Origin: Planctomycetaceae bacterium
Lineage (GTDB): Bacteria > Planctomycetota > Planctomycetia > Planctomycetales > Planctomycetaceae
Reading direction: 5' to 3'
NCBI GenBank assembly: GCA_027489895.1
Contig: JAIXZD010000126.1
Location: forward strand, 1 to 10,104
Length of the DNA: 10,104 nt
The notes beneath the pieces are model-generated. The model made no database searches, was not told the origin of the DNA, and saw only the letters and a list, made by a program, of their open reading frames with translations. How positions within the stretch are numbered: the stretch's first letter is position 1; the number at the start of each line of letters is the position of its first letter. The position numbers were made by a program, and so were the translations under genes. Below, piece by piece: positions 911 through 10,091 of this stretch.

Positions 911-1393
911 TCAATCGCCGGTGAGCCACTTCATGGCTTCGTCTTCGTCGGGGTTGGCAGGGGGAGGCGGGGGAACGGCGGGCGTCGGCTTTGGAGGGCG
1001 TTTGGGAGCGGGACGCGGGGTCTCTTGCAGAACATCCCCCAGCAGGCCGGCTTTTCGCAGTAACCCCACGCTCAGATCGACACCATCTTCCGGTTTGGGA
1101 CCGGCGGTAAGCGGGGTGTAGGCAATTGTGTAGTAGTGCCGGCCAAAGCCGACTTCGTCGCCAGACATCAGGAACTTCGCGTCGACCCGCTCGCCGTTCA
1201 CGCGCACCCCGTTGGCGCTGCCCAGATCGCGAATCTGCCAGTAACCGTTGACCAGTTCCAGCTCGCAATGCTTCCCGGAGACATTCGCAAAATTGATGCA
1301 GATATCGCAACTGTCCCGTCGCCCGACGAGCAGTTTTTTCTTGAGGAGCGGAATCTCCTCTCCACCACCACGGGGTGTGAGCACGCCGTACAT
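911..1393 (-). CDS. Small FHA (forkhead-associated, phosphothreonine-binding) domain protein with a Pro-rich C-terminal tail.
   Basis: 160-aa ORF with an ATG start. The sequence KKKLLVGRRDSCDICINFANVSGKHCELELVNGYWQIRDLGSANGVRVNGERV matches the canonical FHA signature (G-R...D..I....VSR.H..I......W.I.DL.S.NGT.VNG..V). The C-terminal PRPAPKRPPKPTPAVPPPPPANPDEDE is low complexity. It sits on the same strand 167 bp upstream of rsgA, so co-transcription is likely. Confidence 0.8.
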   Translation of the reverse strand: MYGVLTPRGGGEEIPLLKKKLLVGRRDSCDICINFANVSGKHCELELVNGYWQIRDLGSANGVRVNGERVDAKFLMSGDEVGFGRHYYTIAYTPLTAGPKPEDGVDLSVGLLRKAGLLGDVLQETPRPAPKRPPKPTPAVPPPPPANPDEDEAMKWLTGD

Positions 1394-1591
1394 AGTCCCG
1401 AAAGCCTGCGTTCAGGAAATCGCGCCGGGAAACCTGCGCTCGAACAATTGAGCCCGCCTGTTCCGCCACCAGCCACGCGGCTGAACTCGGCTGCTTCATG
1501 GAGTGTAGCAGAACCTCCCGAGTGGCAGAAAATGGGAAAATGTCAGTTCGGCACCGGGGAGTGCGCGGCGGTCGCCCGGGTTGGTGAGGAG

Positions 1592-1775
1592 GGTTTTTGC
1601 CCACCACCAAGGCACAAAGGCACCAAGGAAAGACAGGGCAGGGGGGCTGGAGCGAATCCGTCGACACACGCGACGAGGGAGTGATCAGGGAGTAATCAGG
1701 GCGAGCCGACCAGACTTCGCACCAGAGCTTGATCTGTCTTTCCTTGGTGCTCTTGGTGTCTTGGTGGTGAAAACC
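1592..1775. repeat. Long imperfect inverted repeat. The ~45-nt arms (1592..1636 and 1734..1775) flank a 97-bp spacer. Each arm carries three tandem CACCAAG(G/A) heptads, so there are six CACCAAG/CTTGGTG units in total.
   Basis: Seen directly. The left arm is gggtttttgcc-CACCACCAAGG-CACAAAGG-CACCAAGG-aaagacag. The reverse complement of the right arm (ctgtctttccttggtgctcttggtgtcttggtggtgaaaacc) is ggtttt-CACCACCAAGA-CACCAAGA-GCACCAAGG-aaagacag. That is roughly 35 of 36 core positions matching, with 3-4 mismatches or indels. It lies in the divergent intergenic region between the FHA gene (start 1393, minus strand) and the GTPase gene. Confidence 0.7.
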
Positions 1776-1880
1776 AAAAGTCCGAAGTGGGGAAACATCA
1801 TCGCGTCTTCGCTCAGCTCCCTCCCGGAATCCGCTGAGTTGGTATCCTGTTCCCAGAGGCTCCGTCCCGACCCGGCTCGC

Positions 1881-3695
1881 GTGAACCGCATTGTGATCGA
1901 ATCCGCTGCTGAACTGTCCCACCTGGCGCTCCTGGGTCGGATCGATGAGTTTTCCGACCGGCTGGCCGCGTGGTGCGAGCATCCCGGCCATTGGCAACCG
2001 GCCCGGGCCGAGCAGTTTTTCTTGCGGCGAGTCCGCGAACGGCTGGACAAGATCCGTGCGCGGATCACGGCGCCGCTGGTCGTCGCCACGTTTGGCGGAA
2101 CCGGGACGGGGAAAAGTTCGCTCGTCAATGCGCTCGTGGGCGACGATGTCACCCGGAGCGGCCGACAACGACCAACCACGACCCGCCCCATTCTGATTGT
2201 CGGTCCCGAAACCGATCTTGCGGCGATCAGTTTTCTCACGGTCGAAGACTGTGAAGTCGTGCAGGCCTCTGGCCTCCTGCTCGACCAGATGGTGCTGCTC
2301 GACTGCCCCGACCCGAACACGAGTGAAACGGATGGAGAGGGCACAAACCTCGATCGTCTTCGGCGCATGCTGCCCCATGTCGATGTCCTGCTGTGTACCG
2401 CCACCCAGGAAACCTACGCGTCGTCGCGGGTGCTGGAAGAGCTGGCGGGCGCGGCCGAGGGCTGTCGGCTCGTCTTCGTGCAGACTCGGGCCCACCTCGA
2501 CAGCGATATTCGCGACGATTGGCGCGATCGGCTGGGCGATTCGTTCGAAGTTCCCGAGATGTTTTTCGTCGACTCCGTCGAAGCGCTCGACGACCACAGG
2601 AACGGTCGTCCTCCCACTGGCGAGTTCGCGCGACTGACGCATCTGCTGACCCATGAACTCGCAGCGACCGAGCGAATTCGGGTGCGGTGGGCGAATGTCG
2701 GCGATCTGGCTTCTCGGGCGATGGGAGATGCGTCGGCCCGACTGGAGCGTGCGGTCCCGCGACTAACGCAACTCGAAGACAAGCTGAATCGGCAGCGCGA
2801 CGAAGTGGCCCGAAGCTGGCTCTCCGAGATCGAGCGTGAACTCGGCGCGAATCGTGGCCTGTGGGAGCGGCGGCTGCTCGCGGGGGTGTCGCGACAGTGG
2901 GGGGCGACGCCGTTCAGCCTGCTGATGAAGTTCACGGGGGGGTTGGGCGGCTGGTTCGCTTCGCTGGCGCTGGCTCGTTCCCGATCCGTCGCACAAATGG
3001 CGCTGGTCGGCGCGACCGAGCTCGCTCGACTCGCGGCGCGGGAGGCGGGCGATCTGGGGGCCGAAGAGAGATTTTTGCTGGCCGCAACCGGGCCGATCGA
3101 CGAGGCCCGCCTGAAGGGATTGCGGCTGGTCGCCCTGGGGTATGCCCGTGATGCCGGTCTGGAGCTGCCCCCTCAACGAGAGTCTTCGACACTGGCGGAA
3201 AGTCGTCCGGTTGTGATGGGCGAACTGGCCGCCCGAACGCGCTCCGCCATCGAGGGCGCCGTGGACGAGACGGCGCGGTCGAGCGGTCGACTGACGCGGT
3301 TCGCCTGCGAGTGTGCCATCATCGGTTATGTGGTTTACGCGCTCGCCAAGCCCGCGAAGAACTTCTTTTACGAGCACCCCTGGCTGGATGCGCCGCTGCT
3401 CAGTTCCGACTACTACATCCACGCCGGGCTGTTCTTCGTGCTTCTGACCGGGCTGCTTGTCGTCTGGATGACGTCTGTTCTGCGGCGCGCGTTGCGCCGC
3501 CGCCTGCCTGCGGCGTTGCGACGTCTGATCGAAACGGGCCGAGAGCCGCTGCACGCCGATCTCGACGCGGCCCGGTCCGCCGCGCAGGAGCAGGTCGACG
3601 CGCTTCTGAAGCTGCGCGGGATGGCCGACGCACTCCGTCCGGTTGCGACCTCTGCGGGACGCCTAGGGCGGCGGATCGCTCAGACCGTCCCGTGA
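1881..3695 (+). CDS. Large dynamin-like (BDLP/YjdA-like) P-loop GTPase with a C-terminal membrane-inserting hairpin. The start is uncertain: in-frame candidates are TTG 1581, GTG 1764/1767, and GTG 1881/1893.
   Basis: The G1 P-loop is VVATFGGTGTGKSSLVNALVG (about nt 2085..2150). The switch-I-like segment is RPTTTRPILIV. The G3-like segment is MVLLDCPDPNT and the G4-like segment is LVFVQTRAHLDS. A long helical middle region follows. Near the C-terminus there are two hydrophobic helices, CECAIIGYVVYALAKPAKNFFYEHPWLDAPLLSSDYYIHAGLFFVLLTGLLVVWMTSVL (about nt 3300..3480), and then an Arg/Ala-rich helix. At ~600-700 aa, with the GTPase at the N-terminus and a paddle near the C-terminus, the architecture mirrors bacterial dynamin-like proteins. 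There is no in-frame ATG in the first 230 codons of the maximal ORF. The maximal ORF's 5' end overlaps the inverted-repeat element, so I favour a downstream GTG start. A start at 1881 places the P-loop ~73 aa from the N-terminus, as in BDLPs. Confidence 0.6.
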   Translation: MNRIVIESAAELSHLALLGRIDEFSDRLAAWCEHPGHWQPARAEQFFLRRVRERLDKIRARITAPLVVATFGGTGTGKSSLVNALVGDDVTRSGRQRPTTTRPILIVGPETDLAAISFLTVEDCEVVQASGLLLDQMVLLDCPDPNTSETDGEGTNLDRLRRMLPHVDVLLCTATQETYASSRVLEELAGAAEGCRLVFVQTRAHLDSDIRDDWRDRLGDSFEVPEMFFVDSVEALDDHRNGRPPTGEFARLTHLLTHELAATERIRVRWANVGDLASRAMGDASARLERAVPRLTQLEDKLNRQRDEVARSWLSEIERELGANRGLWERRLLAGVSRQWGATPFSLLMKFTGGLGGWFASLALARSRSVAQMALVGATELARLAAREAGDLGAEERFLLAATGPIDEARLKGLRLVALGYARDAGLELPPQRESSTLAESRPVVMGELAARTRSAIEGAVDETARSSGRLTRFACECAIIGYVVYALAKPAKNFFYEHPWLDAPLLSSDYYIHAGLFFVLLTGLLVVWMTSVLRRALRRRLPAALRRLIETGREPLHADLDAARSAAQEQVDALLKLRGMADALRPVATSAGRLGRRIAQTVP

Positions 3696-6620: not shown

Positions 6621-9600
6621 ATGCATTACATTCCCGATTCCGCCCGAGCACTTCTGGAAGGCAGTGCGGACGCGTCCTCGCGAACCGAGGCCGAGGGGAA
6701 CTTTCATCTGCGGTCGGCCCCGATCTATCTGCTGACCTTGCTGGTGGGCGGATTGCTGGCGACTGATCTCGTTGCGACGGCGCTAAACTCGGATCAGGCG
6801 GGAAGCAACTCGGGCTGGAGCACGACGTTCTGGGGGATTCGCTGGGCGGTCTGGGCGGCGGTGATTGGCGGCAGCCGGATTCTGGGGCAGACCGTTGACG
6901 GGCTGCTGTCGGGTCGGGTTGGAGCAGATCTGGCACTGACGATCGCCTGCGTCGCGGCGATTCTCGTGGGCGAACACCAGACGGCGGCCCTCGTCGTGCT
7001 GATCGCGTTGTTTGGCGAGTGCCTCGAGGGTTACACGGTCGATCGGGCCGGGCGAACGATTCGCAAACTCTGGCGCAACACGCCCGAGATGGTGCATGTG
7101 GTTCGCGGGGGGAAGGAGCTGGATGTTCCGGCGGCTGAGGTGACGGTCGGCGAAGTGTTGATTGTTCGTCCGGGAGAACGAATTCCCGTGGATGGACTGG
7201 TGCAATCGGGGCAGTCGGCTGTCGACGAAAGCAGCCTGAGCGGGGAAAGTCTGCCGCTGGAGAAACGGACGGGCGATCGTGTCTCGGCCGGAACGCGCAA
7301 CCAGTTTGGGTGGCTCACCCTTTCCGCAGAACGCGTGGGCGAGGCGACGACTTTTGCGCAACTGGTGACGCTGGTTACCGAGGCAGGGGCACGGAAAACC
7401 GGGTTGGAACGGGAAGCCGATCGCCTGGCGCGGTACTTTCTGCCTGCGGTCTTGCTGGCGGCCGGACTGACGCTGCTGGGTTGGCGGTGGTCGACGGGCG
7501 AATGGCAGCGGGGCGTTCTGCCGGCGTTGTCGGTGCTGGTGGTGGCGTGCCCGTGTGCGCTCACTTTGGCGACGCCGAGCGCGGTCGTGGCGGCGCTGGC
7601 GTGGCTGGCGCGACGGGGCGTGGTGGTGAAGGGGACGCAGGCGCTGGAACGACTGGCAGGAGTGGACCTCGTCGCCCTCGACAAGACCGGAACATTGACC
7701 ACGGGCGACCTGACACTCGTCACGACGCAACCTCTGGCCGGGCTGACTGGTTCAGAACTGCTGCGGTTGGTGGCCGCGGCCGAGCGGCCGAGCGAACATC
7801 CGCTGGCCAGGGCGCTCGTTCGGGCTGCCGACGAAGCCGGCGTTGTCGTGCCCCGGTGTACCGCGTTTCAGGCGATTCCCGGGCGGGGGGTACGGGCGGC
7901 GATTGATCTGGTCGACCTGCCGGCCGACCTGCGTCGGATGGTGTCCGGGGTTTCGGCTCAGCCCCACATTCTCGTGGGGACGCTCGCCTGGCTGGAGTCG
8001 CAAGGGGCCATGGCCCGCGATAGCAACCGGTTTCTTTTGGAAGAGCTGGCAGCGCGGGGTGAGGTGCCGTTGGGCGTCGCCCTGGTCTGGAATGAGGACG
8101 ATGCGGACGGGTCGGAGGTGGCGGGCGGTGCCCCGGTGATCCGCTTCCAGACTGCAGTTGCTGCGGGCGAATCTGGGACCGGATTGCCAACGGAGATAGC
8201 GTCGGGCGGACAGTGGCTGGGGCTGCTGGGACTGCGGGACGTGCTGCGCAGTTCGTCGGTCAGCGCGCTGGACGAGCTTCGCGAGTTGGGGCTGGTCGAT
8301 CTGGTGATGCTGTCCGGAGACCGCGAGGCGACGGCCGTGCGGATGGCGCGTGAGTCGGGGTTGATTCGCGAGACGGGCGCTGGGCGTGTCGTCGCCGAAC
8401 TGTCTCCTGCGGACAAAGCGCGATGGGTGACCGAGGCGCAGGCCGGTGGGCGAAAAGTGCTCATGGTGGGCGATGGGGTGAATGACGGTCCGGCGCTTGC
8501 CTCGGCGGAGGTCGGGGTGGCCGTCGCTCGTCCCGGAGCCACCGGCTCGCTCGCCGCGGAAGCTGGGGACATCGTGCTATTGGGTGATCCCATGGCGACG
8601 TTGCCGGGCCTGGTGCGGCTCTCGCGATCGCTGGTGGCTGTCATCCGGCAAGGCATCTACCTGTTTGCATTTGGGTTCAACGGGCTGGGAGTGTTGCTCT
8701 CGGCGGTAGGCTGGCTCAACCCGGTGGGCGGGGCGCTGTTTCACGAGGTGGCGTCGCTCGCGGTGATGGTCAATGCGCTCCGCCTGTTGTGGGTGGATGA
8801 CTGGCGGACGACCGCTTGGGGGCGGGGATTCGTCGCGACGAATCGCTGGCTGGACCGGGCGGCCGAACGCCTGGCTCCGAGTCGGATCGTCACGGCCCTG
8901 GCGAGCCAGGCGGGACGAGTCGGGCAGGTCGCGCTGGCGGGACTGGTCGCGGGCTGGCTCTGCTCGAACATCGTGTTTTTGCGGTCGGACGAGCAGGCGG
9001 TGATTCTGCGAAATGGACGATTTCGCGAGGTCGCGCAGGATGGCTGGCGGTGGGCTTGGCCGCGTCCCTTTGAGACGGTGATCAGGCTGCGTCCGGGAGA
9101 ACTGAGGAAGGTGACGATTGGGCCGGACAGCCCGACTCCCGCTCGTCTTCCAGGGGCCGATGCGCCGGTGATTGAATGGCAGGCCGAACATGGCGACGAG
9201 GAAGGCCTCGTGGCGGATGACCGACTGCTATTGGTCGCCGATGAAGTGGCCCTCGAACTGACGGCGGAAGTTCAATACCGCATTCGTGACGTGCGGGCGT
9301 TTGCCCTCGCCACGGCTGATGCCGAGCGCTCGATCCGCCTGTTGACCGAATCGCAACTGCGGGCACGCGTGGCGCGGCTGGCACTCGATGAACTGTTGAC
9401 CTCGGCGCGCGAGAGTTTGTCCCGCGCGACGCGTGAAGCGGTGCAGCAGGCGGCGGATAGTTCGGGGCTGGGCGTCGAGGTGGTGGAGGTCTGCCTGCTC
9501 GATGTGCATCCGCCCACGCCGGTCGTCCCCGCCTATCGCGATGTGGCCAACGCCCTCGAAGAAGAGCAGCAACTGAAGAACGCTGGGGAAGTCGAATACA

Positions 9601-10091
9601 CGCGGCAGATTCTGGCGGCCACGGGCGAACCGGGGTTGGCTCTGCTGGCAGGGGAACCGGTCGATCAACCGCTCGCCGAATCGGTCTGGGAGCGGCTCTC
9701 CGCCCGAGATGCGGCGGCACCGCTAGCGGGTCAGGCGGCGGTGTTGCTGGAAGCGGCGGAGGGACAGCGCATCGAGCGACGATCTCTGGCTGAGATCGAA
9801 GCAGCGCGGTGGAAGGCGCTCGCGACCGTGCTGCCCACGGGTCGGCCGCTCGTGGCGCTGGAACAGTTCTGGACGGCGATGGAACAAAGCCTCGCCGACC
9901 GTCCGCTGGTGGCGATCGACCCGGTGCTGGGGGGGCGACGTCAACTGCTGTTCGTCAATCCGCCCGCACCACCCGTCTTGAGCAGCGAAGCTCAAGACGC
10001 TGCCCGCGAGGCCGCGCGGGAGGCCCAGGAACAGCGCGACCAGGCGCCGTTTCTACGAAGAGAACCGGGGACAAGTTCCAACCCGCAATAG
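6621..10091 (+). CDS. Fusion protein. The N-terminal ~720 aa are a CPC-type P1B heavy-metal-translocating P-type ATPase with no N-terminal HMA metal-binding domain. The C-terminal ~430 aa carry an extra TM helix, an HflK/HflC-like SPFH (band-7/stomatin/prohibitin) domain, and an Ala/Glu/Arg-rich coiled-coil tail.
   Basis: P-type ATPase motifs: actuator [10 protein letters not shown] (TGES-like); TM6 [13 protein letters not shown] (CPC); phosphorylation site DKTGTLT (about nt 7680..7700); N-domain SEHPLARAL (HP); hinge [13 protein letters not shown] (about nt 8470..8505); eight predicted TM helices; terminal [19 protein letters not shown] (about nt 8730..8790). The frame then continues with no stop into a hydrophobic anchor, [21 protein letters not shown]. 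The SPFH part follows: [31 protein letters not shown] ... [19 protein letters not shown] ... [23 protein letters not shown] ... [35 protein letters not shown]. This is collinear with E. coli HflC/HflK (ITLRFGKV...PGLHFKIPFIE...DSYIKWRISD...LKRKFSDRLRSEIG...LGIEVVDVRIKQINLPTEVSEAIYNRMRAERE). Confidence 0.85.

Follow-up and report, generated by a model that had tools for sequence, protein, structure and literature searches.

The inverted repeat at positions 1592-1775 of the window, the 10,104-nt stretch of a Planctomycetaceae contig analyzed here, belongs to a dispersed family with a fixed polarity and defined ends, whose members either enclose a gene for a GxxExxY protein or are empty. It is considered likely that the copy in the window is a gene-less ('empty') derivative of a dispersed GxxExxY-bounded foldback cassette and not a regulator of the FHA-domain and GTPase genes that flank it. 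Across the family, the arms are under constraint in copies that have the gene and have decayed in at least one empty orthologue. Probably, the element is selfish or else serves the cassette and not the genes on either side. The family is apparently an undescribed cross-phylum foldback repeat; no description of the repeat or of its link to GxxExxY was found in the literature searched, an absence that is not proof of absence.

The left arm, GGGTTTTTGCCCACCACCAAGGCACAAAGGCACCAAGGAAAGACAG, was read from the sequence at 1592-1636 and the right arm, CTGTCTTTCCTTGGTGCTCTTGGTGTCTTGGTGGTGAAAACC, at 1734-1775, with 97 nt between them and a total length of 184 bp for the inverted repeat (Table 1). Two inverted arms around a 97-nt spacer had been described in an earlier, sequence-only reading of this DNA, and both the sequence and a repeat search confirmed them. 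Because one 1-nt indel and two substitutions separate the arm cores, the search reported the pair in two parts, of 22 nt (91% complementarity) and 18 nt (89%), that are shifted against each other by the 1-nt indel. The 17-mer GCACCAAGGAAAGACAG is present without mismatch in both arms (2 matches versus 0.01 expected). In the core of each arm, CA-CCACCAAG is followed by two more 7-nt units and then by GAAAGACAG. The six CACCAAG heptads reported previously were present as six 7-nt units, three per arm, of which five are CACCAAG; the sixth (1613-1619) is CACAAAG. CACCAAG itself was counted 6 times in the 10-kb window versus 1.07 expected, and 5 of the 6 occurrences are inside the arms. The arm CCACCAAGGCACAAAGGCACCAAGGAAAG is devoid of T and cannot fold on itself.

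Table 1. Coordinates of the inverted repeat, its parts, and the adjacent genes in the window.
Feature	Position	Strand	Remarks
FHA-domain gene, divergent left neighbour	911..1393	-	context
Left outer flank GGGTTTTTGC	1592..1601		GGTTTT pairs with AAAACC at 1770-1775
Left arm CA-CCACCAAG G CACAAAG G CACCAAG GAAAGACAG	1602..1636	+	three 7-nt units and GAAAG(R)CA tail
Spacer, 97 nt	1637..1733		no GxxExxY remnant; inner stem extension, 11-mer duplication, second-repeat fragment
Right arm, inverted copy: CTGTCTTTC CTTGGTG CT CTTGGTG T CTTGGTG GTG	1734..1769	-	
Right outer flank AAAACC	1770..1775		with GTG 1767-1769, forms the TGAAAAC boundary typical of the Planctomycete-type subfamily
Dynamin-like GTPase	1893..3695	+	probable start GTG 1893, or GTG 1881

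RNA folding of the plus strand gave -93.9 kcal/mol (z -6.0) and that of the minus strand -90.8 kcal/mol (z -6.8), with none of 200 shuffled sequences as good in either case, in agreement with the very stable hairpin proposed before. Each strand folds into one long hairpin, the stem of which runs on into the spacer, where 1647-1656 pairs with 1716-1725. Remnants of GxxExxY were sought in the spacer and none was found; the element in the window is without coding capacity. The segment AATCAGGGCGAGCCGACC at 1694-1711 is a fragment of a second dispersed repeat, GGCGAGCCGACCCTGTGAGGGGTCGGTGG, which is described with the family below. The spacer also contains a tandem 11-mer duplication, AGGGAGTGATC / AGGGAGTAATC (1676-1686 and 1687-1697).

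The repeat is located between the FHA gene (start at 1393, minus strand) and the dynamin-like GTPase gene, downstream of which are genes for a GNAT acetyltransferase, an AAA+ protein, and a P-type ATPase. The last of these, a 1156-aa protein at 6621-10091 (+), is a P-type (E1-E2) ATPase fused to a C-terminal SPFH/Band 7 domain, which is an unusual combination. An exact-protein look-up of the FHA protein returned no match, and promoter and terminator scans of 1300-2000 identified no site. No integrase was detected in 22 kb around the window, and no Y1_Tnp domain was present among the genes called in a second assembly of the same species (L001).

The maximal ORF of the GTPase (1581-3695) spans the repeat, and the gene caller placed the start of the annotated protein P0001 at GTG 1764, within the right arm; on these grounds the repeat could be regarded as the translated N-terminus of the GTPase, or else as an artefact of assembly. 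In ten homologues, the protein begins at positions equivalent to 1881-1893 (to residues 101-108 when counted along the maximal ORF). This places the repeat in intergenic DNA, about 105-118 nt upstream of the coding sequence, and bears out the proposal of the sequence-only reading that the GTPase starts downstream of the maximal ORF start. The left arm lacks T and therefore cannot hold a stop codon in any forward frame, which renders the open frame there uninformative. The public N-terminus of P0001 is probably 39-43 codons too long. As for assembly, the repeat is identical in L001 (ENA) and L002 (GCA_947458185.1), two further assemblies of this species with 2.5% and 1.8% divergence from the window, respectively. 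Identity of the repeat in assemblies of diverged strains excludes local mis-assembly, the condition under which the earlier reading would have dismissed the repeat as spurious; three such assemblies agree, and the same architecture was found in a complete isolate genome. The probability of an artefact or a translated N-terminus is thus negligible.

Segment 1460-1978 of the window (519 nt) showed zero differences from L001 and L002, despite 245 mismatches in 10.1 kb overall, and the mismatches were clustered elsewhere (811-894 and 3137-3335). The difference-free segment may reflect recombination tracts rather than constraint; local constraint in the lineage of the window could also account for it.

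The next relative (L003/L004) encodes a GTPase of 83% identity in the same FHA-GTPase arrangement and is without the inverted repeat. In L003, the right arm alone can still be recognized, at 77% identity and with damage to its units, and the region is shorter by about 70 nt. The element was thus at the site already in the common ancestor with the 83% relative and has since decayed there, which indicates that neither the FHA gene nor the GTPase gene needs it. Upstream of more distant GTPase orthologues, the neighbouring genes are different. Among non-coding blocks, conservation between the window and L003 is highest in TAGCAGAACCTCCCGAGTGGCAGAAAATGGGAAAATG (1506-1540; 31 of 35 positions), and this block makes a stronger candidate for a promoter or operator shared by the divergent FHA and GTPase genes than the inverted repeat does.

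These comparisons bear on the view that the repeat is a cis-regulator specific to this locus, whether as a hairpin in the 5' UTR, as a small RNA, or as an operator with six sites that controls the FHA/GTPase pair. The divergent intergenic position just upstream of the GTPase start and the very stable fold are as such a regulator would have them. However, the closest orthologous locus retains a degraded right arm only, distant GTPase orthologues have different genes upstream, the same arms recur at 120 or more unrelated loci, and there is no match in Rfam (none at E<=1 in the window, and none at the gathering score in 18 family loci). The conserved 5'-UTR regulator or small RNA that had been envisaged for the FHA/GTPase pair was therefore not upheld, either by the orthologous locus or by the covariance-model search, and a locus-specific regulator is considered very improbable.

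Dispersed copies were sought with the 17-mer shared by the arms in 185,579 species genomes, which gave 45 single hits versus about 70 expected by chance. Chance matches accounted for 43 of the 45, with matching limited to about 17-21 nt except for one 26-nt extension in L033. The remaining two were homologues of the whole arm at unrelated loci: in a Holophagaceae metagenome-assembled genome (MAG; L032), two inverted arms around a 22-nt loop, situated between convergent genes, and in a Planctomycetaceae MAG (L048), a single arm directly after a stop codon. The integron integrase encoded at 1164-2153 (-) of L032 (TIGR02249, 394 bits) is about 0.9 kb from the hairpin copy, with a methyltransferase-like ORF between the two; the hairpin is 3' of intI and not on the cassette side.

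A pattern of 28 positions, CCACCAAGRSACNAAG(N)GCACCAAGRAAAG, which covers all five known arms (the left arm at 1602..1636 among them) and is too specific for chance, matched at least 120 stretches in a metagenome collection and gave no match in viral contigs. The arm-bearing loci span 47.5-71% GC, and one locus of the subtype found in the window carries Planctomycete-type PSCyt1/PSCyt2 domains. The arm, about 35 nt in length, is also present in the complete isolate genome of Geothrix sp. PMB-07. Two to three copies are present on single contigs in L089, L122, and L180, and one copy only in the 22 kb around the window in the same genome. The family spans at least two phyla, probably three. A shared contaminant or vector as the origin of the metagenome hits is unlikely, given that the hits have different flanks and that a finished isolate genome also contains a copy.

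The iteron and operator readings of the repeat were set aside because the same sites recur at 120 or more unrelated loci. Of the options raised from the sequence alone, a MITE-like element or multi-site transposable-element ends came closest, given the dispersal at many unrelated loci, and was retained in modified form only.

Inverted partners within 500 nt downstream were found for 77 of the 113 unique arms, and an upstream partner was essentially never found; the order is fixed as CACCAAG-arm, loop, CTTGGTG-arm. Loop lengths are 8-65 nt in most copies, 90-300 nt in copies of the Planctomycete type, and about 390-410 nt in copies with a GxxExxY gene. In the majority of copies, the one in the window among them, the loop is short and non-coding. 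Each end is composed of a (T)TCA/TGAA boundary, CCAC, three direct units of 7-9 nt (CACCAAG with a variable fourth base), and an (A/G)AAAG tail, such that the outer ends of the element read (T)TCA-CCACCAAG ... CTTGGTGG-TGA(A). The Planctomycete-type subfamily is distinguished by a GGAAAG(R)CA tail, a longer stem, a left flank that is G-rich and then T-rich, and a TGAAAAC right boundary. The copy in the window aligns with this subfamily at both ends, tail and boundary included, and its left outer flank (1592..1601) matches the G-rich-then-T-rich tract ahead of Planctomycete-type arms.

Complementarity reaches only 1-6 nt past CCAC...GTGG. Direct repeats of 2-8 nt at any offset were searched for in the flanks of 52 doublets, and no excess over permuted flanks was detected; the flanks of the window copy are ..TGCC and AAAAC. 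The earlier remark that no target-site duplication flanks the repeat thus agrees with the doublet test. When the variable positions of CACCAAG-family arms were examined for covariation, matches were as frequent as expected, with the exception of second-spacer length, which tracks the subfamily. The family thus offers no compensatory evidence of the kind expected for a structured RNA, and the absence of covariation at these positions implies that the units are kept as sequence and not merely as pairing partners. The only covarying change is the switch to CACAGAG arms at the level of the superfamily.

Elements of the family are nested within one another's loops in L114, L153, L171, and L174. Several Planctomycete-type copies contain or adjoin the second dispersed repeat, GGCGAGCCGACCCTGTGAGGGGTCGGTGG, which is itself a small hairpin, is often present as inverted pairs in Planctomycete-type contigs and foldback loops, and recurs in L075, L077, L124, L150, L153, L165, L171, L174, and L177. 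A small conserved hairpin of about TCTCGGCATCGCCTTCGGCGATACGCGAGA follows the left arm in L080, L094, L110, L127, L128, L141, L142, and L157, precedes the right arm in some copies, and replaces it in others, as a module that travels with the family. Arms built of CACAGAG/CACGGAG units adjoin CACCAAG elements or nest in them (upstream in L096, L122, and L166; in the loop of L114), and arms of CACGAAG, CACAAAG, and CACAGAT units also exist. The unit sequences suggest a superfamily of CCAC-N3-G unit hairpins.

The long loops of about 390-410 nt encode a GxxExxY protein (TIGR04256/PF13366; E 1e-40 for TIGR04256). Six GxxExxY ORFs were present in the fetched family loci, and all six were located between arms, with the stop codon about 10-15 nt ahead of the right arm. 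In the finished genome of Geothrix sp. PMB-07, the order is argS-[arm-GxxExxY-arm']-pyrG, with another arm 5.5 kb away, and a second Geothrix copy is located between convergent genes. Alignment of four orthologous argS/pyrG loci revealed nearly invariant arms, an ORF that varies mainly at third codon positions, and poorly conserved outer spacers. The third-position variation indicates that the GxxExxY gene is under purifying selection. By the same alignment, the arms are under even stronger constraint at the nucleotide level than the ORF where the gene is present.

The association was also visible in the protein databases, in which GxxExxY N-termini such as MNHQDTKAPRE and DHHQDTKAPRK (from Geothrix, Holophaga, Terriglobia, Acidobacteria, and Verrucomicrobiae) correspond to the translated arm. 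N-termini encoded by the units, TE-rich ones included, were found in about a tenth to a fifth of 150 GxxExxY cluster representatives. At one locus, a GxxExxY gene of the TE type is flanked by TTCA-CCACAGAGGCACGGAGGGCACAGAGG... and an inverted ...CCTCCGTGTCTCTGTGGGTGAA; these arms are built of CACAGAG/CACGGAG units and retain the same architecture, both arms having changed together. The HQDTKAPRK or HRGTEGTEDTE-type N-termini of many GxxExxY entries are probably repeat DNA. Gene callers translate the T-free arm as protein, and the GTPase P0001 likewise gains about 39-43 probably spurious N-terminal residues.

The GxxExxY family comprises 21,674 representatives (clusters at 50% identity) at E<=0.001. 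An AlphaFold model of the protein (pLDDT 91.9) was compared with PDB structures, and the best matches, with weak E-values, were Cas4 SSO0001, lambda exonuclease, archaeal splicing endonucleases, and restriction enzymes; the model thus indicates a PD-(D/E)XK nuclease fold. PADLOC and PDB sequence searches with GxxExxY yielded no hits, and nothing relevant was found in the literature on GxxExxY, TIGR04256/PF13366, and 23S IVS proteins. GxxExxY is not among the known transposases and has no known activity.

Under the preferred reading, in which the window repeat is an empty copy of the cassette, the unit that moves or is copied would be arm-GxxExxY-arm, spreading by a process that leaves no target duplication, possibly with the GxxExxY nuclease acting in trans and the arms as its recognition sites. 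The lack of target duplications would point away from DDE-type cut-and-paste and towards hairpin or single-strand mechanisms or recombination-based copying. A protein would read the 7-nt units, the nuclease itself being the most economical choice, or else the stem would serve as an RNA processing site. Empty hairpins would be deletion derivatives that have lost the gene; they carry (g)cttttgcagtt, which in full-length copies is located just ahead of the right arm. Orthologous sites filled in one genome and empty in another were absent from the sample, every group being in the same state. Transcribed in either direction, the element in the window would form a very stable hairpin, in the leader of the GTPase mRNA or in an RNA antisense to FHA, and this hairpin RNA would be a plausible RNase III substrate. 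Such a hairpin, formed on transcription, is the one effect that can plausibly be ascribed to the window copy.

Another explanation is that the repeat is a structural module of use to the host (a bidirectional terminator, an mRNA-stabilizing or RNase III processing hairpin, or an insulator) with 7-nt units that are read by a conserved host protein and kept in sequence for that reason, in which case the window copy would insulate or tune the divergent FHA and GTPase promoters. The short-loop subtype is terminator-like, being A-rich upstream and T-rich downstream as in bidirectional intrinsic terminators, and the L032 copy and the second Geothrix copy lie between convergent genes; moreover, the arms are conserved as sequence with no covariation at variable positions, and the window repeat is identical in three strains. 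The subtype found in the window lacks this base composition, however: its copy has a T-run before and an A-run after the hairpin, which is the reverse of a terminator, the terminator scan was empty, and the genes that flank it are divergent, leaving nothing there to terminate. In addition, the 83% orthologue allowed decay, and a host module leaves unexplained both the bracketing of GxxExxY by the arms and the nesting of elements within one another. A host-useful module is for these reasons regarded as rather unlikely.

A bolder form of the preferred reading is offered tentatively, namely that the arms are the ends of a previously unrecognized selfish cassette in which GxxExxY is carried within inverted 7-nt arrays, and which has crossed phyla, makes no target duplications, and leaves empty hairpins behind. 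The arrays would be recognized by GxxExxY or by RNase III, and the cassette would be spread over Acidobacteriota, Planctomycetota, and probably Verrucomicrobiota. If true, it would amount to a protein-coding 'intervening sequence' of intergenic DNA and operons instead of rRNA.

For the window itself, the preferred reading is deflationary, as the hairpin would be a passenger and not a regulator built for the FHA/GTPase pair. More generally, it is unusual for a dispersed repeat that a sequence of about 35 nt stays nearly unchanged over 47-71% GC and in at least two, probably three, phyla. The large and uncharacterized GxxExxY family gains a concrete candidate for a nucleic-acid partner, that is, the arms as DNA or the hairpin as DNA or RNA, and the odd HQDTK or TEDTE-like N-termini of many database entries would be explained as translated repeat DNA.

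Several known systems share features with the family. An intrinsic terminator differs from the window copy, which has no T-run after the stem and in which an A-run follows the hairpin on both strands; the scan of 1300-2000 was empty. Integron attC sites resemble the family in that an imperfect inverted repeat accompanies a single small ORF, but the outer ends here have no RYYYAAC/GTTRRRY core sites, and the copies are solitary and not in arrays. The intervening sequences (IVS) of 23S rRNA, to which GxxExxY may be linked, also consist of inverted flanks that form a long stem and enclose a short loop or small ORF. RNase III cuts them out, and small proteins from expanded families of paralogues are encoded in some of them. 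The copies described here, in contrast, are in intergenic or mRNA contexts, and the window contains no rRNA. Correia, ERIC, and BOX elements are likewise dispersed inverted-repeat elements of about 100-200 bp in intergenic DNA, and repeats of this type are transcribed together with adjacent genes and can change the expression of the latter. Their sequence and host range differ from those of the family, Correia elements make a TA duplication, and no repeat of the Correia/ERIC/BOX type is known to bracket a nuclease-like gene.

The family behaves most like REP/REPIN elements and MITEs, yet fails defining features of each. With MITEs and composite transposon ends (Tn7, Mu, and CACTA-type), it shares small, non-coding, dispersed elements with terminal inverted repeats of 35-45 nt, ends made of direct sub-repeats, and a longer relative with the same ends that carries a gene. 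It differs from MITEs in having no target-site duplication and no conservation of internal sequence between copies, and its candidate 'autonomous' gene, GxxExxY, has a predicted nuclease fold and is not a known transposase. With the REP/REPIN elements associated with RAYT (Y1) transposases, it has in common short extragenic repeats present as single units and as inverted doublets that form long hairpins, the lack of target-site duplication, many copies at unrelated loci, and a protein gene that can be located between inverted copies. In REP/REPIN systems, however, the repeat is a palindrome, whereas the arm here, with no T in its left copy, is built from three 7-nt units in direct orientation; no RAYT is known for the family, and the gene between the arms is a GxxExxY gene with a predicted PD-(D/E)XK fold instead of a Y1 transposase gene; and the arm, rather than being species-specific, is common across phyla.
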